Shown piece by piece: positions 8,453 through 64,000 of a stretch of 64,000 nt of DNA (the first letter of the stretch is position 1; every line of letters starts with the position of its first letter). Position numbers and translations under genes: made by a program. The notes beneath the pieces were generated by a model. It was not told the DNA's origin and ran no database searches. It saw nothing but the letters and a program-made list of their open reading frames with translations. The stretch comes from Hormiphora californensis (lineage: Eukaryota > Animalia > Ctenophora), in assembly GCA_020137815.1 (NCBI GenBank), contig CM035362.1, positions 744,001 through 808,000 of the forward strand, written 5' to 3'.

Positions 8453-8655
8453 ACACACACGTGTACCACGTACATTGTAGCAGTTTGAGAGGTTGTTTTG
8501 TAACTTTGTGTTGACGGTACAAAATGCTGCAATTATAAACTAGTGATAGGACTAGTGATGGCCGACTAGGCCGTGAGATTGTTGCTGTAATACTGTTGTT
8601 AGCTTTTGTATTGTTGCTCTTTTCCTAAACAGTATTATAAATCTACCAGGGGAGC

Positions 8656-14768: not shown

Positions 14769-29640
<14,872 letters not shown>

Positions 29641-29895: not shown

Positions 29896-39569
<9,674 letters not shown>

Positions 39570-39716: not shown

Positions 39717-40964
39717 ATGGCAAGATCCCGGCTTGCTTATCTCACCCTCAGATGTCTCACAGCCATCCCTCCTCCTCCTCCTCAAGTCCTCTCAACTCCT
39801 CATCTCCTCTCAGCTAGACCCCTCTCCACACCCTCCTCCCACACCTCTCCCTGGAGAGAAGACCACCCCAACCACACATCGGATGTCAAGAAATCATGGA
39901 AGAGCCGCAATCAGAAGCTCATGATTCACAGTCTCAAACAGGAACCTGGGGAATCATATGAAGACCTGAAGGCGATCCTAAGGGACATGTTTAGTGTTAT
40001 ACCGGGGGATCCTGTGAGGCTGGATCATGCTTACCGAGTTTATAGCACCACTGACAATGATGGTTGTTGTGCGGTCAGGGCGATCTTTGAGAACACGAAC
40101 GACATGAAGAGAGTAATTGAATACCGGAATAAGATCGCAAAATCGGGGGATGAACGAGTTGCTAAGGTGACCATCTCAAGGGATCGAAGAACAGATCTGG
40201 ATAAGAAGTTAAAAAAGCTGCAGAAAGAGAGACCAGATCGGGCATTTTGCATCATAGCTAGTAACATTGTAGATGTGACTGCTGATAAAGAAGGTAATAA
40301 AGTTTTTGTTGATCTGTTTGATCATTCCAAATCAATCAAAATCTTCAACCTACCGGAAACAGACCAAAGGGAAAACACATTCTCCCTGGTTGAGGATCTT
40401 CTAAAAGAACGAGGGTTGGAGCATCATTGTGTCAGGGCAGCATTCCGGGTAAACGTGAAGGACAATCCCAATAACCCATATGGACATCCTCGAGTTCTTA
40501 GGGCTGTGTTTGATTCGAATGAAGTTGTCACCCAGATCCTGGGGACTTTCGCAAAAAAGCCCTCCCAAAAGTATAACGGTAAAGTGTTCCTTCATCGGGT
40601 AGACATGTTGAATAAAGTGGACCCCAATAAAATGGTGTTTATCCAGAATTTTCCACGAGCCACAGATAACGGAGGGGAGGAGACTGATGAGGCTCTGAAG
40701 GAGTCCGTTGAGAATCTGTTTTCCAGCTGGGAGGAGAAACCAACCGTTTTAAGTGTGTTCCGGGTGGGCTATCCAAATTCCTATGGTAGAAGACCTGTTC
40801 GAATCATCCTGGAGACCGAGGAAGATGCGGCTTTGATTTTGCAGCAAAACCGGAAACTTGTCCGACACAATGAACGTAGTTTCAAGCTGCACGTTTACGG
40901 CAGAGGGAAGGATGAGGAAGATGATGAGAAGGAGCATGAGGAAAAGAAAAATAATGTGAGATAG
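39717..40964 (+). CDS. Unknown protein, copy 1: presequence-like N-terminus plus 3 LINE-ORF1-type RRM-like domains (415 aa)
   Basis: Intronless ORF; R/L/S-rich, acid-free N-terminus; repeated pattern [hydrophobic-I-x-N/S-L-P/K...E...(Y/F)RV...VR-hydrophobic-F/L]. Confidence 0.75.
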   Translation: MARSRLAYLTLRCLTAIPPPPPQVLSTPHLLSARPLSTPSSHTSPWREDHPNHTSDVKKSWKSRNQKLMIHSLKQEPGESYEDLKAILRDMFSVIPGDPVRLDHAYRVYSTTDNDGCCAVRAIFENTNDMKRVIEYRNKIAKSGDERVAKVTISRDRRTDLDKKLKKLQKERPDRAFCIIASNIVDVTADKEGNKVFVDLFDHSKSIKIFNLPETDQRENTFSLVEDLLKERGLEHHCVRAAFRVNVKDNPNNPYGHPRVLRAVFDSNEVVTQILGTFAKKPSQKYNGKVFLHRVDMLNKVDPNKMVFIQNFPRATDNGGEETDEALKESVENLFSSWEEKPTVLSVFRVGYPNSYGRRPVRIILETEEDAALILQQNRKLVRHNERSFKLHVYGRGKDEEDDEKEHEEKKNNVR

Positions 40965-41120
40965 TGGTAACTTATTATGATTCGGTGTGTGACATTTTTT
41001 CCCCGCCTTCGGCCTTCACCCCCGGGGGGGGGGGGGGGGATCACCTCCTAAATGCGTGGATGACATGCCTATTTTGGGGGTGGGTTCCAGCGAAAAATTG
41101 ACAGTTAGGGGGGCCCCAAA

Positions 41121-42985
41121 GGCAGGTGAGTAGAACTTCGCTCCTAATAAAAGGCTGCAATAAAAGGCTGCAATAAAAGGCTGCAGAAAAAGGCTGCAGA
41201 AAAAGGCTGCAATAAAAGGCTGCAGAAAAAGGCTGCAATAAAAGGCTGCAATAAAAGGCTGCAATAAAAGGCTGCAAGGTATCACGTATCCAACCAGACT
41301 AAAGCGGGAGATAGACCGAATCGTCCTCCCCTAATAGTGTTTCGTATCACGTATCGGCTGTAAAGAGACCGAATCACCCTCCCCTAATTATAGTGATTCG
41401 TGTCACGTATCCAACTAGACCATAGGCGATAGAGAGAGCGAGATAGAGAGCGAGTACGAGTGAGAACTGAGAGAGTGAAAAATCAGAATCACGGTGTGGT
41501 ATCACGTACCATGGTATCCTCTAATGAAAAGTGGTTACCAATTGACAATGAGACCTCATCGGTCCCGATACGTGATTCTCTACCGCTATCCCACCGCTAT
41601 GTATTTTCCATTAGTCTTTCCGTATCGATCCACGATTCAGTAGAGGTACTACTACTACTACTACTCTGAGTGCCTGGGCTTGCCTACGGCAAGCCCACAG
41701 GGGCTATCGCAAAGCGATATCGCCGGCACTGGAGAAGAGTCCCCCCGCCGTCTCCCCTCGCATGGAACTACCATCTGGCAGGTTCACAATATAACGGGAG
41801 ATTTGGAGTGGGGCTCTTCTCGGGGTTGTTCTAGTCCTGTGTGGTTATTTTTTCCAGGAACGTTTATACTTTGATCTTGAACCACAGTTTCGTCTTCGTT
41901 TTCACTTAATCTTTGATACGGGATATGTGAGACCTATCTGTCTGATTATGTTCAATTAGGTTAGAAGGCTAAACTAGCAAGGATTTTTTCTCAGTCCACA
42001 GTTTTGTTTAGTATGTATATATTGGTGGCGGGTGGGGTGGTTCGGGGTGGGTGGAGGCTAATAATAATAGGGCTAGATATTTGGTTGAAAAAGGGAGATT
42101 CTACTTGAAGGGGAGTGAGAAAAATAGGGGTAGATATTGGGTTGAATTCTTTTATTGACATAATACCATGTAGAACATGTGTTTAGGTACCAGATATTAT
42201 CCGTATAGCCATCTTAATTCTTGGAGCAGCAAACAGTGGCCTTCTGAATTGCTACTGTCAGTAGAGGTAGTCAGTAACTACTGAGAGTGTTGGTCTAATG
42301 AGGTAGACAATGGCCGAAATCTCGAGTTCGCTTTTCGTGATTTTAGCACTAGAGTCCGCTTACCCATCTATTGATTGAGCGTGTAGCACAATGAGTGCTA
42401 CACGCACTCACAATATGACAGGTGAACCACCCAACCACTTGGTTCACCTATCATAGTTTCTACCTCATTAGACCAACACTTTCAGTAGTTACTGACTACC
42501 TCTACTGAATCGTGGATCGATACGGAAAGACTAATGGAGAATACATAGCGGTGGGATAGCGGTAGAGAATCACGTATCGGGACCGATGAGGTCTCATTGT
42601 CAATTGGTAACCACTTTTCATTAGAGGATACCATGGTACGTGATACCACACCGTGATTCTGATTTTTCACTCTCTCAGTTCTCACTCGTACTCGCTCTCT
42701 ATCTCGCTCTCTCTATCGCCTATGGTCTAGTTGGATACGTGACACGAATCACTATAATTAGGGGAGGGTGATTCGGTCTCTTTACAGCCGATACGTGATA
42801 CGAAACACTATTAGGGGAGGACGATTCGGTCTATCTCCCGCTTTAGTCTGGTTGGATACGTGATACCTTGCAGCCTTTTATTGCAGCCTTTTATTGCAGC
42901 CTTTTATTGCAGCCTTTTTCTGCAGCCTTTTATTGCAGCCTTTTATTGCAGCCTTTTATTAGGAGCGAAGTTCTACTCACCTGCC
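41121..42985. mobile_element. Merlin-like non-autonomous DNA transposon with about 530-bp TIRs
   Basis: Termini ggcaggtgagtagaac / gttctactcacctgcc; 8-bp TSD gccccaaa; 13-bp repeats (aataaaaggctgc)n in the TIRs; empty site in the paralogous junction near 47909. Superfamily call is inferred from GG termini and TSD length. Confidence 0.85.
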
Positions 42986-43369
42986 GCCCCAAAATACCTT
43001 ATTTTTATAATTGGCCGATTTTTGGCCCTAATTGACCCAAGTACTAATCTTTCGAGCATGTTTGATAGATTCAGTTTTGATTTTTGGTGCACAGACTAGA
43101 TTTGATTGTCCATATTAAAAAATTTAGTCCGCTGTACAGAGAAATACATCAAAAAAGTGTACTTTTACTGTCGATTTAGTCCAGATTACCGAAAATAGCT
43201 TCAAAATCAGGCGGTTTTTGTCAAAATTGGGTTGGGCTAGACGGTTGATTCAAACAAGGGGCCCCCTGTATGAGTCCCTATTTGATAAGGGGGTGGGTCC
43301 CAATTGGAGTGGACCAGTTAGGGGGTGATTTAGGCATGTCATCCACGTAATTATAGTATAGTTATATAG

Positions 43370-43446
43370 AGTGGTATATAGTGGTATAGCTCCGAGCATG
43401 TCTCTCTGGAGAGTGGAGGTCCCTGGTTCTATTCCCGGTCAAACCC
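43370..43446 (+). other. Pseudo-tRNA / SINE head
   Basis: gtggtatag...ggtccctggttctattcccggtc; a truncated copy with ggttcaattcc lies near 50895-50920. Confidence 0.4.
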
Positions 43447-43668
43447 AGAATTTTTCGATTTTCTTCCCTATTTAATTCTTGCTCAGATCTCTTTGTTTTA
43501 AAACTCTCACCACATACAGCACCTTGCATATTTCAATTCCAGGAGAGCTTGAAGAGGCTGGAATAAAGCGTTGAAGATTGCTCGAAAGAAATCTGATTGG
43601 TCTACCATCCAGGAGGTGAGAGAAAAATAACTATTGTATATATCATGGTTAGCTTGGTTACCTTGGTT

Positions 43669-44882
43669 CAGGGCTGGCTCCAGGGGGTGATGCGGGGGGT
43701 GCACACTAGGGTGTGCTATTTTTTCAAATGCCTAATTTAATTCAAAATTTCACTTGGTATCGGGTTAAATGAGCTCCTACGATCATTCTAAAACATTTTA
43801 TCAAAAAGTTTTGGCTCTACCATGGCCCAATTACGTTGGCACGAGCTATGCCCATATATGGGCATATTCATTTCAAAAAGTATGTTTTAGGGCGTGATTT
43901 CGAACAAAACACACATATAAATCGTCCCGTGACAACTTATACAACTGTCACTTTCAGTTTGAGTCTTCAGATATCGACTTTATGAACAAAAATAAAAATT
44001 TTCCTCCCTTTTTTTCTTGCTAATTTTACCAACTTGCAGAATCGTGGGGACGAATTTTAATTTTTTTTAGTTTTTTCTTGGTGGAAAGCAAATTTCGGTT
44101 GTAATCGACTAATTTTGGCCTGCGGAACACGATCCCGTTCATGAAAAAGCTCTCAAAATTTAAGAACATGTCCAAAATGAACATTTTTTGTCAAAAATGA
44201 ACATTTTTAGGTCAAAAATGAACTTTAGCATCATTTAATGATGCATATCAATTCTTGTCAGTTTCGAGGTGCTGAACACGATCCTGAACATAAAAAGTTG
44301 ATATCAAGAACATGTCAAAAACTGGTGAAAACCACACATATTTCCCTGTTTTTACCATTTTTCGGTTAAAAACTACACTTTTTAAATCGCGATGCCAACG
44401 TAACTGACAAACACTATCCTGATTATGTTTTGCTGATGTGATAGAGAATTGTCCATAGTTTCACATTAGCTAGATACTGAATGGCCTAGTCGAAAAAAAT
44501 TTGAAATAGCACACCCTAGTGCACACCCCCCCCAAAAATTCTTGGCAGTAAAGCTGCCAAGACTGTCTGAGACCATTTGGATTGGGAAACCACCCCAAAA
44601 ATTTAAAATTTTCAGTAAAATTTTTGACTGATCACAACCGAATTAAAATCACCTAGTGAACATCACTGAGTGAGAGAGAGAGCATTGTAGCATTCATAAA
44701 TCTAGAAAGTAGACGTCACAAATGATTAAAAACCCTAAAATTTGCTTGATTTATTTAAAAAATTTCCTGGGACTTCGCCCCCTGGACCCCCCCCTGGGCG
44801 GAGCTCGCAAATGCTACAATTAGGGAACAGTGGCCTTCGGCCACTGCACCCCCCCAGAAATATCGGGCTGGAGCCAGCCCTG
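43669..44882. mobile_element. hAT-type MITE (TIR cagggctggctccag, TSD ccttggtt) with a nested hAT MITE at 43707-44518 (TIR tagggtgtgctattt, TSD gtgcacac)
   Basis: Both 8-bp TSDs read directly. The outer element recurs at 51142-51527 without the nested one. Confidence 0.88.
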
Positions 44883-44948
44883 CCTTGGTTACCATGCATA
44901 ATAACTATGTCTTGGTTATCATGGTTACAATGGTGACTAATATAATAG

Positions 44949-45180
44949 GGGGTATGCATAAGCCCGGATAGTCCGGATAATAGGAATATTCAGGAAAGCA
45001 AAGTTATTCCAGCATATATGCATACGAGCTGGAATACTCCGGTAATCATGCCCAGATAACTCGTATAGCCCGTATCTAGATTTGATAATCATACTCTGAT
45101 ATCCCGGAGTGTCCTCTAGGCTATCCTGAAAATACCAATTATCCGGACTATCCAGGTTATCCGGCTTTATGCATACCAGG
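44949..45180. mobile_element. MITE (also near 51594-51820)
   Basis: TIR ggtatgcataagcccggata / tatccggctttatgcatacc; absent from copy 1. Confidence 0.7.
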
Positions 45181-46185
45181 CCCTAATTAGCCTTTCGTAT
45201 CGCTAATCTCTCGTATGGCTTCCTTTATCAAAAGTAGTAAATTCCCGTTTGGATCAGAGAGAAACATTAGCAAGTTCTTTCTTAAACAGTATACATTTCA
45301 GGTGATGCAGAACCTGACAATTTTAAAGAAGAAACGAGAGAGTCCTGATCTCATTCATGACATTAAACAAGAGAGTTGAGAGAAATACAATTTATTTTAT
45401 TGTTACTTTTGGTACCTTTGTTAAGTTATTTTGGCTGCTTTTATTCTGCATCGTAATGGCTGAGGTATATGTGCTATAACACCGGTGTGTATCTGTATAT
45501 CGCGCCCCGTGATATGCACGCATATCGGCTCCTTGCGGAGCAAGGAGACGATATGCAATATATCGCCCCAAACGTAGTGAGGGCGATATATTTGATACAC
45601 ATAAGGTGTTATAGCATATAACGCCCACTGCAAGCAAGGAGAGAACAACACTAATCCCCTTTCAAGTTTTTCAACTCAATTTGACAAACTATTCAACATT
45701 ATCAAAGTTTCACAGCAACAACAAATAATTACACAGAGAGAGAGAGAGGCAACACAACTCATGTCAATCCTTCAAATATGTTCCCTTTTCAACTCCAGAC
45801 ATGTCTAGACATGTCTAGACACTCACACACACACAAGCGAACTATTTGGTGCTAATTAAATAGAGAGAGATAAAGATTACCTATGTCTCTCTTGTCTCTC
45901 CTTCTCTTGTCACCATTCCCCGCCCCTTGTTGTGTTAATCTCTCTTTCTTTTTGCAACAGTGTGTACACAACAGTACACACACACAAAAGAAAGAGTTTT
46001 CACACCTTTTTGGGCGAATTCTTACGTGTAATAAATTGCAATTTTGGAGCGGGCGTTATGAGATATATCATTTCGGATGCAGTCATATCAGCCCGCTACC
46101 GCGCGGGTGTTATTTCTCCAAAAAATGCGCAGTGGGCGTTATATTTCTGTAACCTTCCTAACTTGATCATTGTTTTAGGTAGGCG

Positions 46186-47670
46186 ATGGCAAGATCCCGG
46201 CTTGCTTATCTCACCCTCAGATGTCTCACAGCCATCCCTCCTCCTCCTCAAGTCCTCTCAACTCCTCATCTCCTCTCAGCTAGACCCCTCTCCACACCCT
46301 CCTCCCACACCTCTCCCTGGAGAGAAGACCACCCCAACCACACATCGGATGTCAAGGGATCATGGTACAACCGCCGTCTGAAGCTCATGATTCACAGTCT
46401 CAAACAGGAACCTGGGGAATCACGTGAAGACCTGAAGGCGATCCTAAGGGACATGTTTAGTGTTTTACCGGGGGATCCTGTGAGGCTGGATCATGCTTAC
46501 CGAGTTTATAGCACCACTGACAATGATGGTTGTTATGCGGTCAGGGCGACCTTTGAGAACAGTGATGACGTGCAGAGAATAATGAAAAACCGGAAAAATA
46601 TCGCATTATCGGGGGATGAACGAGTTGCTAAGGTAACCATCTTCAGGGATCGGAATACAGATCTGGATAAGATGTTACGAGAGCTGAAGAAAGAGAGACC
46701 GGATCGGACATTTTGCATCATAGCTAGTAACATTGTAGATGTGACTGTTGATGAAAAAGGTAATAAAGTTTTTGTTGATCTGTTTGATCATTCCAAATCA
46801 ATCAAAATCTTCAACCTACCGGAAACAGACCAAAAGGAAAACCCATTCTACCTGGTCGAGGATCTTCTAAAAGAACGAGGGTTGGAGCATCATTGTGTCA
46901 GGGCAGCTTTCTGGGTGAGGATGAAGAATGACCCCAATCTTCGAGTTCTTAGAGCGGTGTTTGATTCGAATGAAGTTGTCACCCAGATCCTGGACACTTT
47001 CGAAAAAAACCCCTCCCAAAAGTATGACGGTAAAGTGTTCCTTCATCCGAGCACCCCAGAACGATTCAGACCTCCTATAAACCCTGATTCTACCTTCTTT
47101 ATTTGCAACTTTAACATCCCTGAGGATTGGGACAAGCAGATGTTGTTGGCGGAGGGTATTGTCAAGTATCTGATGCCTGAGAACACGCCCGAGATTGAAC
47201 AAGTCTCATTTTATGGACGAACTTGGAATAAAAAAGAGAATTCGATTCTGAACGTCCAACTAGATTGTCCCAAGGCAGCTCAGCTGATCATACAACAGAA
47301 GCACCGCCTAGCCGCTAATAAGGATTATAGCACTGCGTTCATATTCCCCTACGTGGAGAACTGGAAATCAATGAGTAAAACAAAAAAGATCCAGTTAGAC
47401 ATGTTGCATAAAGTGGACCCCAAGAAACGAGTGTTTATCCAGAATTTTCCACGAGCCACAGATAACGGAGGGGAGGAGACTGATGAGGCTCTGAAGGAGT
47501 CCGTTGAGAGTCTGTTTTCCAGCTGGGAGGAGAAACCAACCGTTTTAAGTGTGTTGCGGGTGGGCTATCCAAATTCCTATGGTAGAAGACCTGTTCGAAT
47601 CATCCTGGAGACGGAGGAAGATGCGGCTTTGATTTTGCAGCAAAACCTGGAACTTGTCCGTACACAATGA
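46186..47670 (+). CDS. Unknown protein, copy 2: presequence-like N-terminus plus 4 RRM-like domains (494 aa; tail lost by 1-bp insertion)
   Basis: Close paralog of 39717 and 52804; the extra t at approx. 47661 shifts off the charged C-tail. Confidence 0.75.
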   Translation: MARSRLAYLTLRCLTAIPPPPQVLSTPHLLSARPLSTPSSHTSPWREDHPNHTSDVKGSWYNRRLKLMIHSLKQEPGESREDLKAILRDMFSVLPGDPVRLDHAYRVYSTTDNDGCYAVRATFENSDDVQRIMKNRKNIALSGDERVAKVTIFRDRNTDLDKMLRELKKERPDRTFCIIASNIVDVTVDEKGNKVFVDLFDHSKSIKIFNLPETDQKENPFYLVEDLLKERGLEHHCVRAAFWVRMKNDPNLRVLRAVFDSNEVVTQILDTFEKNPSQKYDGKVFLHPSTPERFRPPINPDSTFFICNFNIPEDWDKQMLLAEGIVKYLMPENTPEIEQVSFYGRTWNKKENSILNVQLDCPKAAQLIIQQKHRLAANKDYSTAFIFPYVENWKSMSKTKKIQLDMLHKVDPKKRVFIQNFPRATDNGGEETDEALKESVESLFSSWEEKPTVLSVLRVGYPNSYGRRPVRIILETEEDAALILQQNLELVRTQ

Positions 47671-48063
47671 ACGTAGTTTCAAGGCTGCACGTTTACGGCA
47701 GAGGGAAGGATGAGGAAGATGATGAGAAGGAGCATGAGGAAAAGAAAAATAATGTGAGATAAGTAGTGGTAACTTATTATGATTCGGTGTGTGACATTTT
47801 TTCCCCGCCTTCGGCCTTCACCCCCTGGGGGGGGGGATCACCCCCTAAATGCGTGGATGACATGCCTATTTTGGGGGTGGGTCCCAGCGAAAAATTGACA
47901 GTTAGGGGGCCCCAAAATACCTTATTTTTGGGTAATTAAGACGTTAATTGGCCGATTTTTGGCCCTAATTGACCCAAGTACTAATCTTTCGAGCATGTTT
48001 GATAGATTCAGTTTTGATTTTTGGTGCACAGACTGTCCGTATTGAAAAATTTAGTCCGCTGTA

Positions 48064-48673
48064 TAGTGGGAGACACTAGCGTGGTACGCGCAAAAAAATG
48101 CGTGCCACACCAATTTCGTTTTTCATAAAACACGCAAGAAAAAGTTTTTCAAGCTCGACTTTTCACGTTTTGGCTCATAACTTCTGTTCCTGATAAGATA
48201 AAGACTTCAAACCTTCGCCATTCGATGGGGCTTGAAATTCCCTTTCCAACGGTACCCAAACGAACTCTGTAGCTTATCAGGAACCGGAGATATGGCCATC
48301 TATATTATAAAGCAGAGAACCTTGCAAGACAAAAATTGGGGAAGGGGGTTTTTTGGGGCTTGCACGTGGAAAATTGGCGTGTTGTTAGGGGTGGTTGGTG
48401 GGGTTTGGGGAGTTGCCATGATGGTGGGCAAGAGTTTAATACTGCACGTGCATGTTGTTGGGTGTTTTATTGCGTGTTCCTGTCGTGTTTTGTGGTGCTT
48501 GGCCATCTACTGCTGCGGCCCCGATGAATGCCACAGCTTTTCTACCAACGTATCCCAGCTTTAATAACTCTACACAGCTCCAGTTCTACGGATCTTTATC
48601 ACCTGATTCCAGCTTCCATTATATTCACCAGCCCGATATGAGGGGGAGAGAGAGAGAGAGAAAGAGGGAGAGA

Positions 48674-48744
<71 letters not shown>

Positions 48745-50765
48745 GGGGAGGGAATGATGGGGTTAGAGGGATAAAGAGAGAAGGGGATAGATGAAGACTA
48801 TCCATTGGATAGGGGACAGGGAAAGAGACGGAGACGGAGAGGGGGAGAGAGAGACATAGAGACCGGGGGGGGGGAGGGGGGTTGTTGTAGGACTCCAACT
48901 GGCTGTAAGGGGATTATGGGGTGAGTTGGTCAACATAGCCCGGGGGCGGGGGAGGGAGGGTGCTGAATAATATGGGACGAGAGCAGTCAATAGATATTGA
49001 GAGGATTCGAAAGGGGTGGGAGGATTCAGTAGGGGGCGAGAGGAGTTTTGGGTTTTTTGCCTGGGCTCTCTAGTTTATCATAATGCCGAAGGGCCCTTAC
49101 TGGGGTTATTATCATAATTGATCATATCTCAGGTTCCTGATGAGCTACAAACATTGTTTGGATACCGTTGGAAAGGAAATTTCATTGCCCATCGAATGGC
49201 GCCGATTTGAAGTCTTTATCTCATCAGGAACAGGAGTTATGGGCCAAAACGCGAAAGGCCAAAAATCGTGAAAATTTTTCAATTTCGACTTTTCACGTTT
49301 TGGACCATAACTCCTGTTCCTGATGAGATAAAGACTTCAAACCGGCGCCATTCGATGGGCAATGAAATTCCCTTTCCAACGGTACCCAAACAATTTCTGT
49401 AGCTCATCAGGAACCGGAGATATTATCAATTATGATAATAACCCTCGTAAGGGCCCTTCGGCATTATGATAAATGGCCATATCTCCGGTTCCTGATAAAC
49501 TACAGAGTTCGTTTGGGTACCGTTGGAAAGGGAATTTCAAGCCCCATCGAATGGCGAAGGTTTGAAGTCTTTATCTCTGAAGACGCACCTCTTTGACAAG
49601 TCATACGGTCCTGCTGGCTGATTTGTAGCTTTGTTAGAAGAGATCTGTCTAGTCGTTGTCTGTCTTGTTTTACGAGTCTTGTTCTGTTCTGAGTTCCGAG
49701 TCTAGCCCCTTTTTATACTGAGTGCAGTGATTTTTTCCCTGCCCGGGTGGATGCCGAAGGCATTCACCCGGATGCCTTTTTACTTTGTAAAAAGGCATAG
49801 CAGGGTTAGAATTCGAAAACGACATTTTGGTATACTAACTAATCGGTAGAGGGACATTTTTTGGTCACACTTTCGTTGCGAGGGCAACGGTGTAGCAACT
49901 AGAGCCGCGCGCACAGTGACGAGCTACTCCTTCATCAAACACCTCATTGACACAGTTTGATGGACGTGTGTGTGCGCGCCACTCAACAAAACATGAAATG
50001 CTCTGCCGCGCGTTTCGCGTGTTACCTACACATTTTCATCTTGCGAGTCGAGTGTGAGATGTTAGATAAGTAGTTAAGTTGGAATGTCAAAAGCTGGTTA
50101 GCAAGTGTCATGTGATTGGGAGTTAGCTAACTCTAAGCTATGTGAGAAGTATACTGACAGCTAGATCGTATGCATCTCACATTACATTATGACCAAGCCT
50201 TGATCCTGTTGGCAGTGACAATGTCACTGACATGTGAAACGGTAGGGCAGGGAAACACAGCATTATGAATACATAATGCAATAATTCTTGTTTAACATAT
50301 CTTTTTAACCAAGTAATCGTATAGCTTATCTACACCGTTATCTACTGAATCAACTATTAATCATTAATCTACTCTTTTTTATGATTGGAATTCTAAATTC
50401 TTCTTTTTTAATTATAACTATCTTAATTAACTTATTCATACAGTCCCTCAGTGTGTACCCACTTGTATCTATCTACTGTTTCTGTATGGACTGCCGCATA
50501 AGAAGGCTGGCTTAAGAGCTCTGGCGTTTTAATTATGAGTTTTTTCTCTGTTTTTTGCGTTTATCTCTTAGCTATATTAAGTCAATTTGCGGGGTATCAA
50601 ATGTAACAATTGAATTGAATTGAATTGAATCTCATCAGGAACAGGAGTTATGAGCCAAAACGTGAAAAGTCGATGTTGAAAAACTTTTTCTTGCGTGTTT
50701 TTTTGAAAAACGAAATTGGTGTGGCGCACATTTTTTTGCGCGTACCACGCTAGTGTCTCCCACTA
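48064..50765. mobile_element. Non-autonomous DNA transposon (TAG...CTA termini, 3-bp TSD GTA; Academ-like) containing a nested insert approx. 49578-50629
   Basis: TIR tagtgggagacactagcgtggtacgcg; empty site gctgtacag near 43131. The nested insert ends in (attga)n. Confidence 0.8.
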
Positions 50766-51015
50766 GTACAGAGAAATACATCAAAAAAGTGTACTTTTAC
50801 TGTCAATTTAGTCCAGATTACCGAAAATAGCTTCAAAATCAGGCGGTTTTTGTCAAAATTGGGTACCTAGACGGTTGATTCAAACAAGGGGCCCCCTGGT
50901 TCAATTCCCGGTCAAACCCAGTATTTTTCGATTTTCTTCCCTATTTAATTCTTGCTCAGATCTCTTTGTTTTAAAACTCTCACCACATACAGCACCTTGC
51001 AAATTTCAATTCCAG

Positions 51016-52019
51016 GAGAGCTTGAAGAGGCTGGAATAAAGCGTTGAAGATTGCTCGAAAGAAATCTGATTGGTCTACCATCCAGGAGGTGAGAGAAAAA
51101 TAACAATTGTATATATCATGGTTAGCTTGGTTACCTTGGTTCAGGGCTGGCTCCAGGGGGTGATGCACACCCCCCCAAAAATTATTGGCAGCAAAGCTGC
51201 CAAGACTGTCTGAGACCATTTGGATTGGGAAACCACCCCAAAAATTTAAAATTTTCAGTAAAATTTTTGACTGATCACAACCGAATTAAAATCACCTAGT
51301 GAACATCACTGAGTGAGAGAGAGAGCATTGTAGCATTCATAAATCTAGAAAGTAGACGTCACAAATGATTAAAAACCCTAAAATTTGCTTGATTTATTTA
51401 AAAAATTTCCTGGGACTTCGCCCCCTGGACCCCCCCCCCCTGGGCGGAGCTCGCAAATGCTACAATTAGGGAACAGTGGCCTTCGGCCACTGCACCCCCC
51501 AGAAATATCGGGCTGGAGCCAGCCCTGCCTTGGTTACCATGCATAATAACTATGTCTTGGTTATCATGGTTACAATGGTGACTAATATAATAGGGGGTAT
51601 GCATAAGCCCGGATAGTCCGGATAATAGGAATATTCAGGAAAGTTATTCCAGCATATATGCATACGAGCTGGAATACTCCGGTAATCATGCCCAGATAAC
51701 TCGTATAGCCCGTATCTAGATTTGATAATCATACTCTGATATCCCGGAGTGTCCTCTAGGCTATCCTGAAAATACCAATTATCCGGACTATCCAGGTTAT
51801 CCGGGTTTATGCATACCAGGCCCTAATTAGCCTTTCGTATCGCTAATCTCTCGTATGGCTTCCTTTATCAAAAGTAGTAAATTCCAGTTTGGATCAGAGA
51901 GAAACATTAGCAAGTTCTTTCTTAAACAGCGTCCATTTCAGGTGATGCAGAACCTGACAATTTTAAAGAAGAAGCGAGAGAGTCCTGATCTCATTCATGA
52001 TATTAAACAAGAGAGTTGA
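51016..52019 (+). pseudogene. Second orphan copy of TTC19 exons 8 (51016-51088) and 9 (51942-52019)
   Basis: Same 10-bp deletion as at 43543. Confidence 0.9.
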
Positions 52020-52803
52020 GAGAAATACAATTTATTTTATTGTTACTTTTGGTACCTTTGTTAAGTTATTTTGGCTGCTTTTATTCTGCATCGTAATGGC
52101 TGAGGTATATGTGCTATAACACCGGTGTGTATCTGTATATCGCGCCCCGAGATATGCACGCATAGAGACGATATGCAATATATCGCCCCGAACGTAGTGA
52201 GGGCGATATATTTGATACAAATAAGGTGTTATAGCATATAACGCCCACTGCAAGCAAGGAGAGAACAACACTAATCCCCTTTCAAGTTTTTCAACTCAAT
52301 TTGACAAACTATTCAACATTATCAAAGTTTCACAGCAACAACAAATAATTACACAGAGAGAGAGAGGCAACACAACTCATGTCAATCCTTCAAATATGTT
52401 CCCTTTTCAACTCCAGACATGTCTAGACATGTCTAGACACTCACACACACACAAGCGAACTATTTGGTGCTAATTAAATAGAGAGAGATAAAGATTACCT
52501 ATGTCTCTCTTGTCTCTCCTTCTCTTGTCACCATTCCCCGCCCCTTGTTGTGTTAATCTCTCTTTCTTTTTGCAACAGTGTGTACACAACAGTACACACA
52601 CACAAAAGAAAGAGTTTTCACACCTTTTTGGGCGAATTCTTACATGTAATAAATTGCAATTTTGGAGCGGGCGTTATGAGATATATCATTTCGGATGCAG
52701 TCATATCAGCCCGCTACCGCGCGGGTGTTATTTCTCCAAAAAATGTGCAGTGGGCGTTATATTTCTGTAATCTTCCTAACTTGATCATTGTTTTAGGTAG
52801 GCG

Positions 52804-54372
52804 ATGGCAAGATCCCGGCTTGCTTATCTCACCCTCAGATGTCTCACAGCCATCCCTCCTCCTCCTCCTCAAGTCCTCTCAACTCCTCATCTCCTCTCAG
52901 CTAGACCCCTCTCCACACCCTCCTCCCACCCCTCTCCCTGGAGAGAAGACCACCCCAACCACACATCGGGTGTCAAGGGATCATGGTACAGCCGCCGTCT
53001 GAAGCTCATGATTCACAGTCTCAAACAGGAACCTGGGGAATCACGTGAAGACCTGAAGGTGATCCTAAGGGACATGTTTAGTGTTATACCGGGGGATCCT
53101 GTGAGGCTGGATCATGCTTACCGAGTTTATAGCACCACTGACAATGATGGTTGTTATGCGGTCAGGGCGACCTTTGAGAACAGTGATGACGTGCAGAGAA
53201 TAATGAAAAACCGGAAAAAAATCGCATTATCGGGGGATGAACGAGTTGCTAAGGTGACCATCTTCAGGGATCGGAATACAGATCTGGATAAGAAGTTAAA
53301 AAAGCTGCAGAAAGAGAGACCGGATCGGACATTTTGCATCTTAGCCAACAATATTGCTGATGTGACTGCTGATGAAAAAGGTAATAAAGTTTTTGTTGAT
53401 CTGTTTGATCATTCCAAATCAATCAAAATCTTCAACCTACCGGAAATAGACCAAAGGGAAAACACATTCTCCCTAGTCGAGGATCTTCTAAAAGAACGAG
53501 GGTTGGAGCATCATTGTGTTAGGGCAGCATTCTGGGTGAGGATGAAGAATGACCCCAATCTTCGAGTTCTTAGAGCGGTGTTTGATTCGAATGAAGTTGT
53601 CACCCAGATCGTGGACACTTTCGCAAAAAAACCCTCCCAAAAGTATGACGGTAAAGTGTTCCTTCATCCGAGCACCCCAGAACGATACAGACCTCCTATA
53701 AACCCTGATTCTACCTTCTTTATTTGCAACTTTAACATCCCTGGGGATTGGGACAAGCAGATGTTGTTGGCGGAGGGGATTGTCAAGTATCTGATGCCTG
53801 AGAACACGCCCGAGATTGAACACGTCTCATTTTATGGACGAACTTGGAATAAAAAAGAGAATTCGATTCTGAACGTCCAACTAGATTGTCCCAAGGCAGC
53901 TCAGCTGATCATACAACAGAAGCACCGCCTAGCCGCTAATAAGGATTATAGCACTGCGTTCATACTCCCCTACGTGGAGAACTGGAAATCAATGAGTAAA
54001 ACAAAAAAGATCCCGTTAGACATGTTGCGTAAAGTGGACCCCAAGAAACGAGTGTTTATCCAGAATTTACCACGAACCACAGATAACGGAGGGGAGGAGG
54101 CTGATGAGGCTCTGAAGGAGTCTGTTGAGAGTTTGTTCTCTAGCTGGGAGGAAAAACCAACCGTTTTAAGTGTGTTCCGGACGGGCCGTCCAAATTCCCA
54201 CGGCAGAAGACCTGTTCGAATCATCCTGGAGACGGAGGAAGATGCGGCTTTGATTTTGCAGCAAAACCGGAAACTTGTCCGACACAATGAACGTAGTTTC
54301 AAGCTGCACGTTTACGGCAGAGGAAAGGATGAGGAAGATGATGAGAAGAAAAACAATTTGAGATGGTGGTAA
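52804..54372 (+). CDS. Unknown protein, copy 3: presequence-like N-terminus plus 4 RRM-like domains (522 aa, most complete)
   Basis: Intact intronless ORF. Confidence 0.78.
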   Translation: MARSRLAYLTLRCLTAIPPPPPQVLSTPHLLSARPLSTPSSHPSPWREDHPNHTSGVKGSWYSRRLKLMIHSLKQEPGESREDLKVILRDMFSVIPGDPVRLDHAYRVYSTTDNDGCYAVRATFENSDDVQRIMKNRKKIALSGDERVAKVTIFRDRNTDLDKKLKKLQKERPDRTFCILANNIADVTADEKGNKVFVDLFDHSKSIKIFNLPEIDQRENTFSLVEDLLKERGLEHHCVRAAFWVRMKNDPNLRVLRAVFDSNEVVTQIVDTFAKKPSQKYDGKVFLHPSTPERYRPPINPDSTFFICNFNIPGDWDKQMLLAEGIVKYLMPENTPEIEHVSFYGRTWNKKENSILNVQLDCPKAAQLIIQQKHRLAANKDYSTAFILPYVENWKSMSKTKKIPLDMLRKVDPKKRVFIQNLPRTTDNGGEEADEALKESVESLFSSWEEKPTVLSVFRTGRPNSHGRRPVRIILETEEDAALILQQNRKLVRHNERSFKLHVYGRGKDEEDDEKKNNLRWW

Positions 54373-54525
54373 TTTATTATGATTTGGTGTCAGGTGTGTG
54401 ACAATTTTATTGTTTGAAGTGTTTCTAGTGAGAAAATTTTTCAAACTGACTTTCTAAATCGTTTTACATTAATACCGCTGTTGCCTATTTTGATATCTCA
54501 CTATATTATAGTGGTAATGTAGATA

Positions 54526-56008
54526 ATGTTCCTTGCTAACCGGTCCCTCCGATGTCTCTCAACAAAAACTATCTTCACATCAACTCTCTCTACCCGCTCA
54601 GAATCAACAGCCGCACCTTGGAAAACAACTGCCTCGAAATCTCGAGTTCCTGGTTCATGGCAGCAACGCCGCCTGAAACTCATCATCCAGGGACTTGAGC
54701 AGGATTCCAGATGAGACTACATCGGAACTAATGACAACTCTCCAGACAATGTTTAGTTTTGTGCCCGGTGACCCAGTTAGTTTGGTTCACGCTTATCGTA
54801 TTGACAACACGCCTGATGATAATGGGTGGTGCAAGGTACGGGCGACATTTAAAAACACTGCAGATGCAACGAGAATTTTTGAGAATCGTTTCCTAGTTAG
54901 AAAACTTGAAGACGAAAGGATCGCTCGGGCAAATATCTTTCGAGATCGGAACGAGAAACTTCATCAAAAGTTACAGGACTTACAGAGAGAAAAGCCTGAT
55001 CGAACGTTTCGTATTTTAGCGAACCAGCTAGTTGATGTTACACGAGATGAGAACGGGGAGAAGGTCACAGTGGACTTGTTCGATCATACGAAAACAATTA
55101 AAATCTTGAACCTCCCTGACAGTCAAGAGGAGAACGTGTTTCTGGTGGTTGAAGAGCTGCTACAGGACCTGGGGCTAGATCATTGTGTTAGGTGTGCGTT
55201 TAGGGTGAACGTGAAGAACTATGAACCCGGTGATTCCCGGGTTATCCGAGCGATATTTGATTCGAACGAGGTTGTCAACGAAATTCTCTCCACGTTAGAG
55301 GAGGTTGAGTTGTCTGGTAAACACAAGGGAGTGATCGTCCATCCCATGACCCAATCTGGGTATTATAGTACCTTAGAGCAATACCAACCCCCTCTAAACC
55401 CTGATTCTAGTTTCTTCATCACAAACTGCCAGGTATCGGGGGACCGAGGAGAACAGATGGAGTTAGCAGAGGGTATAGTGAAGTTTCTGAATCCTGAAAA
55501 TACTCCAAAGATTGAAAACGTGGCATTCTATAGTCGGACTTGGATGAATAGGGATTATTCTTTTCTAAATGTCCAATTAGGTTCCCCAGAAGCTGCTCTG
55601 CAAATCATTCGACGAAAGGAACGCCTGGTTTCAAACGAACTCTTCAAAACTGTTTATTTGTACCCTTACCTTGACAATTGGAAGTCCATATTCCAAGATA
55701 AAAGGCCCCGGGTTGAAACGATTGATCCCAAAAGAAGGCTTTTCATCGGAAACTTACCAGGAGCAACAGGCTCAGAAGAATCAGAAGCTGCTCTCCTGAG
55801 ATTGGTCAACAGTTTATTTTCCAGCTGGGAGCAGAAACCTAAAGTTCTTAATACGCTCCGTGTGGGCAAGGAAAATGTTTATGGACGAAGAACGGTTCGG
55901 GTGATACTAGAAACTGAGAAAGATGTGGCTAGGATTTTGGCCAAAAAGGAGGAAATTTCAAAACTTTCAGGACTTAAACTGTATTTTTTATGGAGGGAAC
56001 TCCAGTGA
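54526..56008 (+). CDS. Unknown protein, copy 4 (divergent paralog), with one apparent extra G at 54702-54703
   Basis: MFLANRSLRCLSTKT.. presequence-like start. ORFs 54526-54714 and 54695-56008 join as QGLEQIPDET (cf. HSLKQEPGES in paralogs) if one G is removed. Confidence 0.72.
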
Positions 56009-56402
56009 ACCGATGGGACTCCAGTGAAGCTGGTGGTGATTGGTGTAATTTATTGTACTTGTCTGTGCGTGTTTTGATAAGTTTTTAAATGAATTCAAGA
56101 TCTTTCTTCCTTCATCACCATATATAGTTTTCCCTCTCGGTGTATGTTACCAAAATCAAGTGGTGTTTCACCACTGGTAACCCCTCTTGTAACCCCTCAT
56201 GTCCATCTCTGTATATCTAGTGATATGGCCATGCCACTCCCCCCACTTATTTTGACCTGGATCCACCCCTAGTTACCCCTATTGTAACCCCCATGTCCAT
56301 CTCTCTATATCTAGTGGTATGGCATAGAGAGTGTAAAGAGTGGCGGGGTATTAGATGAGACTTCCCGCTACTAGTACTGCTTACAAAACAACCAACGCAA
56401 CC

Positions 56403-58722
<2,320 letters not shown>

Positions 58723-59844: not shown

Positions 59845-62800
59845 ATGATGTTGAGGAGTGTGTTGAGTCACCCGGTTAAGCGGCTCGTATCCGCGACTGT
59901 AGGTAAGATGACCCCCACTCATTAGGTAATTTAGGTGATGGCAGCCCCTTGCTTTGTTTTGTTTGAGGACGCCATAGGAATCTGAGATACGTCGCATCAC
60001 CCTACTTAGCTAGACTGTGTTTTGCGCTCCCCGCCCGCATCACCCCACACCATCGCAAAATATTCACAACTTTTGACGCTATTTGAACAGTCTCAGTCAT
60101 TTAAAAACACGCAGTAGTTCTCCCTGTTTTCCCTCGTTCCCTATTTCCCAGCCCGGTCCAACAGTGGAGCTGCTGTAGCACCCCCTCTAGTTGAGGTCTT
60201 TGTTGATGGAAATCCCGTTGAGGTTCCAGTGGGATCTACTGTTATACAGGTACCATCGATTTAACTGAACAGGGAATCCTCAATATTACGGACTGTAGTG
60301 AGAAATAGTATAGAATCTAACCAGACATCAAAACAGAAGTGTATGATCAATGATCATATTACTCTTCAGATCCTACTCGTTTTATCTAGTTTTCTACCCC
60401 TCACTCACACCAGGCATGTGAAGAAGCGGGTGTTGAGATTCCCAGGTTCTGCTACCACGAGCGCCTCTCAGTAGCTGGCAACTGTCGAATGTGCCTGGTC
60501 GAAGTTGAGGGATCTCCCAAGGTGAGATTTGATGTAGATTTGTTATTCAGGGTGTCAAACCGATGTGGCGGAGGTTTGAACTGTTCCAAGCCATGTATTT
60601 TTAAAGACCGAAACAAAACTTCATAATCACTGAATGGTTTCTAAATCTACTCTTCTTCTCTACAGCCGGTTGCAGCGTGTGCTATGCCTGTGATGAAAGG
60701 TTGGAAAATCAACACTGATTCCCCCAAAACAAGAAAGGCCCGGGAGGGTGTAATGGAATTCCTGCTGGTGAATCACCCTCTTGATTGTCCCATCTGTGAT
60801 CAGGTATAATACGTCCCCATCTTTGTGTCTTGTTCGACCTGAGAACAGCAGTATGAATGATACCATCGTTCTTGTTGTTTGGTTACTCAACCCTCCCCAT
60901 TTGATGGAGTTGTACTCCGCGCGCGGCTGACACGCGACTTTTTTAAGATGAAAGTACACCTCTTTTCGCGCGTTCACGGACGCTCCTCCTGTCGCTTGGC
61001 TGCTACTGCTCCAACCTAATTTCTGGTGTCTGCAGCTGCTTAGAATGGAGGATTGAAGGCAGCTGTTGTTCAGTCAATATCACCTGTTTATTTGCAGGGT
61101 GGAGAATGTGATTTACAGGATCAAAGCATGGCATTTGGTGGAGATAGGAGCCGATTTGAAGATATGGGTCACGAGGGAAAGAGGTACATATTGGTCACAA
61201 TGACTGTAAATGTGTTAAATATGAAGATCTAATTCTCCCTCTCTCAGGGCGGTTGCTAACAAGAATATTGGACCTCTAGTAAAGACTATAATGACCCGAT
61301 GCATCCATTGTACTCGGTGTGTCCGGTTCGGTAATGAAGTAGCGGGAGTTGAGGATTTGGGGACCAGTGGACGAGGTGGTCATATGGAGGTAAGTTGGTC
61401 GGAACATTGATGAAGTTTCTAGGTTCAAAATTATAAAATTCGTCTCCTATCATGACCATTGAAGCTGATTAATATAAATTAGGACCCCAGTAAGATTTTA
61501 CTCCCACCCAGATTGGAACATATGTAGAGAAGATGTTCAAATCAGAGCTCAGTGGAAATGTTATCGACCTGTGCCCTGTGGGTGCCTTGACAAGTAAACC
61601 CTACGCTTTCACCGCCCGACCTTGGGAGTTAAGGAGGACTGAAAGTGTTGATGTTATGGACGCTGTCGGTAGGTTTTAGTACCCCCTTCCCCCCGCCCCC
61701 CCCCCCCACCGTTCAAGGACCATGGTGGTGTTTCATACAAGAATGTCCTCTCCGCATTTCGTAAGGCCCCTGGTAGCCATGGTTACCCAATGTAATCTCC
61801 CTTGTTACCATGGTAACTGTATATTCCCTCATGTTACAGGTTCCAATATCGTGGTACAGACCCGGGGTGGAGAGGTGATGAGAATAGTACCTGCAGAGAA
61901 CGAGGAGATTAACGAGGAATGGATCAGTGACAAAACTAGGTGAGAAGGGGAGGAATCTAGGCTGTTGTGTAGCAGCCAGATCAAGAAAATACTTCGAACC
62001 TCTTATCTGCTCCTCAGCTGTCCTGTCGATACTCTTAAAAGGGGGTCATTGCATGATTTTAATTGTTCAAATCTGAAGTCACTACCTACTCCTAGTAAAC
62101 CTGTGTTGTTTTCCCGTCTTTAGATTTGCGTACGATGGACTAAAGAGGCAGCGAATCACAGAACCTTTTGTACGTGGTAAAGATGGATTACTCCAGCCTG
62201 AAACTTGGGAAAATGCTCTCGTCACCGTTGCCAGGTAACTTAGCAACCGTCGCTAGGCAGCATGATACCAATAGTTGCTAGGCAGGAAATCACAGACTGT
62301 GGATGAAAAACCTCATATCCGTTATTACCTCACAGGGTCATGAATTCCCGATCTGGAAATGAAATTGCAGCAGTGGGTGGTGATCTTACTGATGCAGAGA
62401 CTCTCTTCTCAGTCCGACAACTCCTCCATAGGTATGTTACTACTGGCTGCAGAGTTCCAAAGTTGTTCCAGTCGGTCTAAAAGAGTTTGTTAGCTGTTGA
62501 GTGTTGGAGAGAGGCCGCATCTTCATGACTAATTATTTCATTCCTACCCTCCCTTCCTCCCCAGGTTTGATAGTGAGATGTTGATGACTGAAGATGCCTT
62601 CCCAATGGCGGGTGGGTCTGGAACAGACCTCAGATCATCCTACATCTTCAACACATCAATCAGCGGTATCGAGGTTAGTAATGAGTGACATATAATATCG
62701 AACAAGATCATGTTTGATAATTTCCAAACATGAACATTGGTCAAGATAATTTAAATTTGCTACTAAACCTTCCTCTCCCCAGGATTCTGATTTGGTGCTG

Positions 62801-63967
62801 TTGATTGGAACTAACCCTCGATTTGAGGCTCCCATTATTAATGCAAGGATTAGGAAGACCTGGGTCCACTCTCCCGTCGATCTACAGGTGACTAGTGTGG
62901 GGATAATGTGGTTAGTGATAACTGATCAGTGATACGGAGGAGATTGATTGAAATGTGGTTACCACTTGGTCTTTTTTGAGAAAGAGAGAAACAATCGGAG
63001 CGTTTCAATTCATTTAAATGTAAATACATTTCAAGATGATTATATATTTCTGTTCCCAATACCTGTTACCAATATCTGTACCAGGTTGGAGTGGTTGGTG
63101 CTGACAGTGATCTGACCTATCCAACAACCCATCTTGGAAACAGTGTTGAGACTCTAATAGACCTGGCCAACGGATACCATCCCTTCTCTCAAGTAGGTGT
63201 TTTACAGCTTGCTACCCTCTCCTTATCCTGTGTATAGCTAGTGTTTGTTTTCAGTGTTTGGTACTCTGCCAATGACATCGGCCCGATGTATGTACTAATC
63301 CCCCCCCCCTCCCATTAGAAACTGAAGTCAGCAGAACGACCCATGATAATTGTTGGTAGCTCCCTGCTATCCCGTGCTGATGGGGTGGGTATCAGTCAGA
63401 TTATTGGCAAGATATCATCCCAAACCCGGGCCCAGGCTGGATGGAAGAGTCTCAATGTGCTGCAGAGGACTGCTGGGCAGGTGGCTGCCATGGATCTAGG
63501 ATATCATCCTGGTGAGTAGGTCACAGCTGTCCTTGTGTGTTTCATACCGCATTTTATTTCAGGGTTCGGTAGATCAAAGCTGCCCCTACAACTTACAACT
63601 ATCAGGTCCAGCTCTGTCTTCTACTGCCTTCGCTATGTCAATCTTTTTCACTTCTTTGTCTATAGTTCTAATAGCTCCCGACCCAGGCCATGTCCTCACC
63701 TTTCAACTCTCCCAGTGACATTGTAACTCACCACTATTATATCCTACCAGGTATGAAATCCCTCGCTGATGTCCGACTTCTCTTCCTCCTTGGCGCTGAT
63801 TCTGCCCCCATCTCTCGAGAATCCCTGCACCCTGATTGTGTTGTTGTCTACATTGGTTCCCATGGTGACAGTGGAGCTGCACTGGCTGATGTAGTTCTAC
63901 CTGCTGCTGCTTTCACTGAGAAAAGTGGGACTTTCTGTAATACTGAGGGACGTGCTCAGATTACCAC
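59845..63967 (+). CDS. NDUFS1: NADH dehydrogenase 75-kDa Fe-S subunit (continues past window end)
   Basis: [107 protein letters not shown]. Confidence 0.98.
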
Positions 63968-64000
63968 GTGAGTGTGGTTGTTTGTTTGTTTGTTTGTTTC

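Follow-up and report, generated by a model that had tools for sequence, protein, structure and literature searches.

How a chain of retrotransposon-type RNA-binding domains came to be encoded by a comb jelly, and what it may do there, is the question raised by a stretch of 64,000 nucleotides (nt) of Hormiphora californensis (assembly GCA_020137815.1, contig CM035362.1, positions 744,001 to 808,000 of the forward strand), referred to here as the window. A family of four paralogous genes spans positions 39717-56027 of its + strand, each with three to four tandem units of the RNA recognition motif (RRM). Sequence profiles and structural models together support the descent of these units from the RRM of a type II (L1/CR1/L2-like) ORF1, the first open reading frame (ORF) of a long interspersed nuclear element (LINE).

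Gene copies and corrected reading frames

The + strand carries four long ORFs, at 39717-40964 (415 amino acids, aa), 46186-47670 (494 aa), 52804-54372 (522 aa) and 54677-56008 (443 aa from stop to stop), on which an initial annotation, made from the sequence alone, had placed four paralogues; all the unit motifs that it quoted were found in the ORF translations. The four ORFs are present, but the last of them has no leader there, and the true start of copy 4 is the ATG at 54526, in a different frame, where a leader similar to that of the Pleurobrachia bachei protein P0005 begins. The features of the family are as follows (CTD, carboxy-terminal domain).

39717..40964, + strand: copy 1; leader, unit 1 (RRM with a CTD remnant), unit 2 and unit 4, with unit 3 deleted
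46186..47760, + strand: copy 2; leader and units 1-4, GT donor at 47754-47755
52804..54372, + strand: copy 3 (522 aa); leader and units 1-4
52804..52983, + strand: leader of copy 3 (aa 1-60); presequence-like, basic, disordered in the model
52987..53373, + strand: unit 1 of copy 3; ORF1-type RRM (aa 62-158) plus CTD helix and hairpin (aa 159-190)
53404..53679, + strand: unit 2 of copy 3; ORF1-type RRM (aa 201-292)
53698..53982, + strand: unit 3 of copy 3; ORF1-type RRM (aa 299-393), then a basic helix
54034..54321, + strand: unit 4 of copy 3; ORF1-type RRM (aa 411-506)
54526..56027, + strand: copy 4; older paralogue (~53% to copy 3), leader and units 1-4, orthologue of P0005

Copy 1 has a GT donor at 40956-40957, immediately 5' of its genomic stop, and no splice donor was found at the 3' position of copy 3 that corresponds to the donor of copies 1 and 2. 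The junction left by the unit 3 deletion of copy 1 is also present in a DNA contig (run X1) and in RNA contigs (X8 and X10), the one from X10 being 420 nt long. The frame of copy 2 ends at 47670 in the window, after small indels relative to copies 1 and 3; these are likely assembly errors, although no contig row listed either confirmed or excluded them. In copy 4, the window contains two surplus bases, the first near 54707-54710 and the second at 55983. Because neither base occurs in the contigs of X1 and X5, DNA runs that come from two separate studies, and the frame of P0005 is uninterrupted, they are likely to be assembly errors as well, and copy 4 is likely intact.

Ancestry of the RRM units

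The initial annotation had traced the units to the RRM of LINE ORF1 proteins, a claim now backed by sequence profiles for all four units and by fold for unit 1 and for a donor-type protein family. A five-member profile searched against 1.84 billion proteins matched 10 at E ≤ 0.001, namely P0005, eight family members or fragments, and P0014 (E 2.5e-4). The latter, an ORF1-like fragment, was the sole match outside the family and led to the donor family described below. The RRM-CTD profile of that family, from which P0014 and short rows were left out, was searched against a set of 20 sequences and matched all four units of copy 3 (84 bits; domain E 4e-9, 9e-5, 2e-4 and 6e-11), with reversed controls at no more than 1.8 bits. 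HHalign comparisons of copy 3 with the ORF1-like family gave 93.5% over 118 columns for unit 1, 97.2% (E 3.5e-11) for unit 2, 93.2% (E 3.1e-7) for unit 3 and 96.6% (E 5.3e-10) for unit 4. Specifically, unit 1 spans profile positions 9-132 of 137, thus entering the CTD, and unit 3 reaches position ~123, with units 2 and 4 ending at the RRM. Between the units themselves HHalign was weak (best 78%, unit 1 with unit 4). A tree of 62 RRM rows and 90 columns, without rows shorter than 60-70 residues and the leader of P0006, placed three of the four units 2-3 substitutions per site from the donor family; its branches were very long and did not tell one capture from several.

Concerning the fold, an AlphaFold2 model built on a 5-sequence alignment shows four domains of RRM topology behind a disordered 60-aa leader, with a helix and hairpin after unit 1. 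A coiled coil is absent, residues 1-60 being Pro/Ser-rich and without secondary structure in the model (pLDDT ~30). When the top 1000 Foldseek chains of the whole model were realigned with VIA-align (one row per entry listed), the top four were all human L1 ORF1p, with Z scores of 11.4, 10.8, 10.8 and 10.3. All four alignments begin at unit 1 and three extend into the CTD; the first has 145 aligned residues at a root-mean-square deviation (rmsd) of 5.0 and the fourth 90 at 2.9. The best match to unit 1 was 2ykp_A (Z 11.4), and its best non-L1 match was La (Z 8.9).

Strand 1 of units 3 and 4 (54034-54060 and 55735-55760) bears an aromatic residue at what we take to be the canonical RNP2 position, where the donor family is aliphatic; this is possibly a shift to ordinary RRM-type binding.

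Donor-type ORF1-like family

Starting from P0014, 37 proteins of 181-344 aa were collected, 27-70% identical to the first. Their model (pLDDT 83.7) consists of a coiled coil, an RRM and a CTD, with long helices where the copies have their leader; type II ORF1 proteins of L1, CR1 and L2 elements are laid out in this way (PMC4120745). A Foldseek search with this model returned human L1 ORF1p in all of its top 10 rows, 9 of them at E ≤ 0.001. The nearest ESM Atlas clusters are mostly from Ctenophora, with scores below 0.9 that make them a lead only. Transposase_22 was not among the 25 of 41 Pfam families listed for 38 members, and the profile search found no donor-family ORF1 elsewhere in the window. 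Alignment A4 (P0014, P0017-P0053) outlines a large ctenophore-associated coiled coil-RRM-CTD family without Pfam annotation, mostly on contigs of 1-2 kb; it may consist of LINE ORF1s or of stand-alone ORF1-only elements.

Copy number, transcripts and selection

The genes had been described as domesticated, and depth, spliced RNA contigs, the P. bachei orthologue and purifying selection agree with this; we consider them very probably host genes. Contig depth, a rough measure of copy number, was 58-136 over copy 3 and 40 over the single-copy copy 4 in run X1, and 853-1768 and 343, respectively, in run X5. The ORF depth fits 2-4 copies and no dispersed repeat; the repeats on either side are hundreds to thousands of times deeper than single-copy sequence. 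RNA contigs, which show presence and not level, start or strand, were found for copy 1/2-type ORFs and for copy 4, contrary to the unexpressed parts of a dispersed repeat family that the initial annotation had named as the refuting outcome. In one contig of the oligo-dT run X8, a copy 1/2-type ORF is spliced at its end to a duplicated exon of the upstream tetratricopeptide repeat (TPR) gene, and the contig goes on without the GT..AG intron 51086-51940; the first of these junctions is also present in X10, another sample of the same study. The spliced form ends in seven different residues because the GT donor lies just 5' of the genomic stop. Because of this 3' splice, the term intronless, applied initially to the whole genes, is valid for the RRM-coding part only. 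Copy 4 is represented by a 152-nt X8 contig with one mismatch, and no 5' end is covered among the RNA contigs listed. As had been noticed before, neither retroelement enzymes nor a tail are attached: no endonuclease (EN) or reverse transcriptase (RT) ORF of at least 100 aa was found in 38000-58960, and no A-run of at least 8 within 400 nt of any of the four ORF ends.

Copies 1-3 share 87-92% identity with one another and ~53% with copy 4. In self-comparison of the window they sit in a tandem repeat that also bears the last two exons of the TPR gene (44520-47729 against 51164-54348, 96.6% match). Judged by these matches, they are recent tandem duplicates and count as one lineage, not three. The expansion announced initially is real as duplication, but most of it is a single recent triplication in tandem, to which one or two older lineages of paralogues are added. 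The duplicated exons are the following (UTR, untranslated region).

43543..45380, + strand: duplicate of the two final TPR exons, forming the spliced 3' exons (seven codons, stop, then UTR) of a copy 1/2-type mRNA
51016..52020, + strand: second duplicate of the TPR last two exons, with the GT..AG intron skipped in the RNA contig

Among 7995 scored candidates, copy 3 had a single full-length relative, P0005 (49% identity, 96% cover). P0005 has 82% identity with copy 4 over 423 aa, so that the orthologue search proposed with the initial annotation yielded an intact P. bachei orthologue; such an identity by itself points to a cydippid closely related to P. bachei as the likely source of the window. 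Another relative, P0006, has lost units 1-2 and keeps its leader fused straight onto units 3-4. The ratio of non-synonymous to synonymous substitution rates (dN/dS, Nei-Gojobori) of copy 4 against copies 1-3, likewise proposed as a check, was 0.09-0.13, a value of ~0.1 between paralogues rather than orthologues and with saturated dS (>3). Unit 1 of copy 1 carries 25 non-synonymous and 2 synonymous changes (p ~0.03, uncorrected, in a region picked after looking), a hint of fast, conflict-type change.

Leader and probable mitochondrial import

The four distinct N-termini (copies 1-3, copy 4, P0005 and P0006) have a net charge of +2 to +4, and their first 25 residues include none that is acidic, as obtained from simple counts rather than a trained predictor. 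All four carry the motif R-C-[LF]-[ST] at positions 9-12; the leader of copy 3 has R-C-L-T at 12-15 and is free of acidic residues up to position 47. In other respects the leaders show little similarity, except between copy 4 and P0005. Their hydrophobic moment is 0.58-0.63, compared with 0.59 and 0.79 for two mitochondrial neighbour genes that show the same charge pattern, and none of 37 donor-family ORF1-like proteins passed the charge test. A basic, acid-free N-terminus and an R-3 site are described as features of cleavable presequences (PMC7723863). It is thus rather likely that the leader is a mitochondrial import presequence, cleavable at the R-3 site. The presequence had been proposed initially, and what speaks for it is its composition and an R-3-type motif conserved in three diverged leaders. 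No donor of the leader was found within the window, and the first exon of the TPR gene does not match it.

Genomic neighbourhood

The window is intron-rich, and its identified genes between 29896 and 64000 (the TPR gene, copies 1-4, ING, NDUFA1 and NDUFS1) all lie on the + strand. The neighbours of the family are:

29896..39569, + strand: upstream TPR gene, which we take to be TTC19-like; presequence-like start, TPR matches below cut-off, spliced exon junction seen
56617..58722, + strand: ING/PHD gene; ING and PHD matches below cut-off on single exons, first exon not located
from 59142, + strand: NDUFA1 (MWFE) gene; below the Pfam cut-off
59845..64000, + strand: NDUFS1 gene (75 kDa complex I subunit); the only neighbour whose exons pass the Pfam cut-off

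The TPR gene stops 147 nt 5' of the copy 1 ATG and copy 3 stops 153 nt 5' of copy 4, and an acceptor-like AG lies no more than 10 nt upstream in all seven ATGs examined. As spliced-leader trans-splicing is known in ctenophores (PMC7986045), the short gaps and these AGs make an operon-like, trans-spliced cluster possible.

Several other elements were observed in the window. Between copies 1 and 2, at 41121-42985, stands an element of very high depth with long terminal inverted repeats (41188-41659 against 42957-42484, 98.5%) and 13-nt subrepeats, likely a non-autonomous DNA transposon. Within a TPR intron, two pieces of an RT + GIY-YIG-like element (31514-32905 and 36037-37775, - strand), presumably Penelope-like, flank an inverted-duplicated block at ~33070-36040. 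Two LINEs were also seen: one at 18332-21523 (- strand) with an open EN-RT ORF of 1063 aa and no donor-family ORF1 adjoining, and one at 24055-27998 (+ strand), in which a Cys/His-knuckle ORF1 of 416 aa is accompanied by an EN-RT ORF2 that is broken. Finally, a multi-exon gene lies at 8641-12838 (+ strand), which we assume from its motifs to be ecto-5'-nucleotidase-like, and minisatellite arrays with units of ~40-60 nt at 15259-16300 and 28500-29300.

Proposed function and alternative explanations

Taken as a whole, the data leave about an even chance that these are domesticated tandem-RRM ORF1 genes whose products are imported into the mitochondrial matrix, where they bind or chaperone single-stranded mitochondrial RNA. 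ORF1p binds RNA as a trimer, through its RRM and its CTD. In the comb jelly proteins, the N-terminal domain and coiled coil of ORF1 are replaced by the ~60-aa basic, acid-free, disordered leader, which would carry the protein into the matrix. Several RRMs in one chain would restore avidity of the trimer type in a monomer that could be unfolded for import. Such a chain probably provides avidity and coats or remodels RNA without strong sequence specificity; the CTD is reported to assist RNA binding in L1 ORF1p (PMC4120745, PMC12129022). Ctenophore mitochondria are fast-evolving, with strongly diverged rRNAs and neither tRNA genes nor atp6 or atp8 (PMC6991124), and if import is true the family would provide named candidates for nuclear support factors. 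Plausible targets would be these rRNAs or the polycistronic transcripts of the organelle, and the genes might, on slender grounds, belong together with mitochondrial genes to an operon-like cluster that is trans-spliced. More tentatively, and with a likelihood somewhat short of even, a retrotransposon RNA chaperone would, in one lineage of comb jellies, have become a mitochondrial RNA-binding protein by swapping its coil for an import signal, multiplying its RRM and joining a trans-spliced mitochondrial cluster; it would stabilise or fold the RNAs of a mitochondrial genome that is among the most reduced of any animal, and the family would still be duplicating and losing domains, with unit 1 changing fast. 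If import is true, a selfish cytoplasmic RNA-packaging domain has been relocated into the mitochondrion.

A number of results weigh against the mitochondrial RNA-binding role or the steps leading to it. Units 2 and 4 have no CTD, and the net charges of the units are only -2 to +4, both of which count against RNA binding. Neither EN nor RT was found beside donor-family members at the two metagenome-contig loci examined (L001, which stops at the ORF end, and L002, which has two broken copies and no EN/RT ORF of at least 80 aa), nor in viral contigs; the status of the family as LINE ORF1 is therefore drawn from fold and diversity. PDB sequence searches with P0003, alignment A1 and the donor-family alignment A4 returned nothing significant. 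Pfam gave neither Transposase_22 nor RRM for the four proteins, only sub-threshold noise, and in the structure comparisons given below the whole model and units 2 and 3 come closest to ordinary RRM proteins. A run of prolines occupies positions 18-22 of the leader in copies 1-3, and the crude null that speaks for the leaders, in which 324 of 12455 windows were basic and acid-free and 1 of 12455 had the motif too, was made of overlapping internal windows, mostly of transposon proteins, and not of an N-terminal proteome, with the motif fixed post hoc. Among copies 1-3, dN/dS was 0.61-1.22 with wide intervals. The non-mitochondrial ING gene stands between the family and the complex I genes, so that the cluster is not purely mitochondrial; the genes had been said to be placed among respiratory-chain genes, and NDUFA1 and NDUFS1 do follow downstream, but with ING intervening. 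Only 9 relatives were found, 8 of them mostly fragments, and the profile search of 1.84 billion proteins found no full-length relative outside P. bachei. With so few relatives (P. bachei plus fragments) the family looks lineage-restricted, which speaks against a role common to all ctenophores and restricts the claim to one lineage.

The ancestry of the units might also be sought in an ordinary host multi-RRM protein, their ORF1 likeness reflecting a shared RRM fold. Whole-model Foldseek does rank Prp24 and raver1 first, as expected because the query is a chain of RRMs, ordinary RRMs are the best structural matches of units 2 and 3 (Z 9.5 and 9.0), and strand 1 of unit 4 resembles what we take to be the canonical RNP2 motif. 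Pfam, however, gave no RRM match at E ≤ 10 in any of the four proteins, nor for P0005 and P0006; all four units match the ORF1-like family, unit 1 into the CTD, and the one non-family match of the profile is ORF1-like. This origin is very improbable and largely refuted. It is also quite improbable that the genes have no stable host function, being a non-autonomous mobile element or young dispensable duplicates read through from the TPR gene. Copies 1-3 are near-neutral, carry stray exons of their neighbour and lie amid very high-depth repeats, and the ORFs of active transposons are under purifying selection too; on the other side stand the low ORF depth, the lack of a tail and of EN/RT, and copy 4, single-copy and with an intact orthologue in another species.

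Two further explanations accept ORF1-derived host genes. The proteins may act in the cytosol or nucleus in the manner of L1TD1, on host mRNA or LINE ribonucleoproteins, the leader being a mere disordered basic tail. This is unlikely, although it is the main rival: the ORF1-derived host genes found in print are all non-mitochondrial (PMC4161310, PMC12129022), the changes in unit 1 of copy 1 hint at conflict-type evolution, and recent tandem amplification with a narrow range suits defence genes. Conversely, the coiled coil, proposed as the handle of L1TD1 on ORF1p trimers (PMC4161310), is absent here, the arginine motif close to the N-terminus is shared by three diverged leaders, and P0006 retains its leader while losing half its domains. 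Distinctly less probable is a mitochondrial protein scaffold without RNA binding, perhaps one that helps to assemble respiratory complexes alongside the TTC19-like neighbour. The CTD-less units 2 and 4, the modest charge and the distance of three of four units from the donor family would suit it, and Lyosin is thought to have lost RNA binding along with its CTD (PMC12129022). Unit 1, however, keeps RRM plus CTD, and the HHalign alignments show the arginine-bearing strand 2 and strand 3 motifs kept in units 1, 2 and 4. Four successive RRMs are a usual layout for RNA binding.

Comparison with known systems

The nearest relatives in design are the type II ORF1p of L1, CR1 and L2 (Transposase_22, PF02994; PDB 2yko/2ykp/2w7a), with which the family shares the RRM fold and spacing and, in unit 1, an RRM followed by the CTD helix and hairpin. 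Unlike them, the copies have no coiled coil, three to four RRMs instead of one, a CTD that is partial or lost, a presequence-like leader, no ORF2 and a low copy number. Canonical multi-RRM proteins (Prp24, raver1, PABP) are similar as chains of three to four RRM folds; the copies differ in having no Pfam RRM match and in their ORF1-like ancestry. The baculovirus protein FP25K (Baculo_FP_2nd, PF25298) is of L1 origin and offers an ORF1-like RRM-CTD outside a retroelement, but it is viral, with a single RRM and no leader. Its matches in the structure search were partial (rmsd 4.2-5.5 Å, E 0.011-0.1), and its ESM Atlas score below 0.9 is a lead only.

Few published host genes derive from LINE ORF1; those named in the reports consulted are L1TD1, Lyosin and three further vertebrate fusion isoforms (PMC4161310, PMC12129022). 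L1TD1 of eutherian mammals is likewise a host gene almost entirely derived from ORF1, from more than one ORF1 copy (PMC4161310), although it has two ORF1 regions with one RRM and a coiled coil, and is cytoplasmic (PMC11014241). The comb jelly family appears to be of independent origin, from a ctenophore ORF1-like family. Lyosin, an L1 ORF1-MYL4 fusion isoform of reptiles and birds, also has an ORF1 RRM under purifying selection in a host gene, with the CTD lost (PMC12129022), but it consists of a single ORF1 exon joined to a host protein and has retained its coiled coil, whereas the mature comb jelly protein would be all RRM repeats. A literature search with thin coverage of subscription papers found no ctenophore, tandem-RRM or organelle-targeted ORF1-derived host gene; one paper that mentions ctenophores (PMC12859917) deals with gypsy envelopes. 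The family thus belongs to a known kind, the ORF1-derived host genes represented by L1TD1 and Lyosin, of which it would be a new, tandem-RRM, coil-less and leader-bearing ctenophore form.

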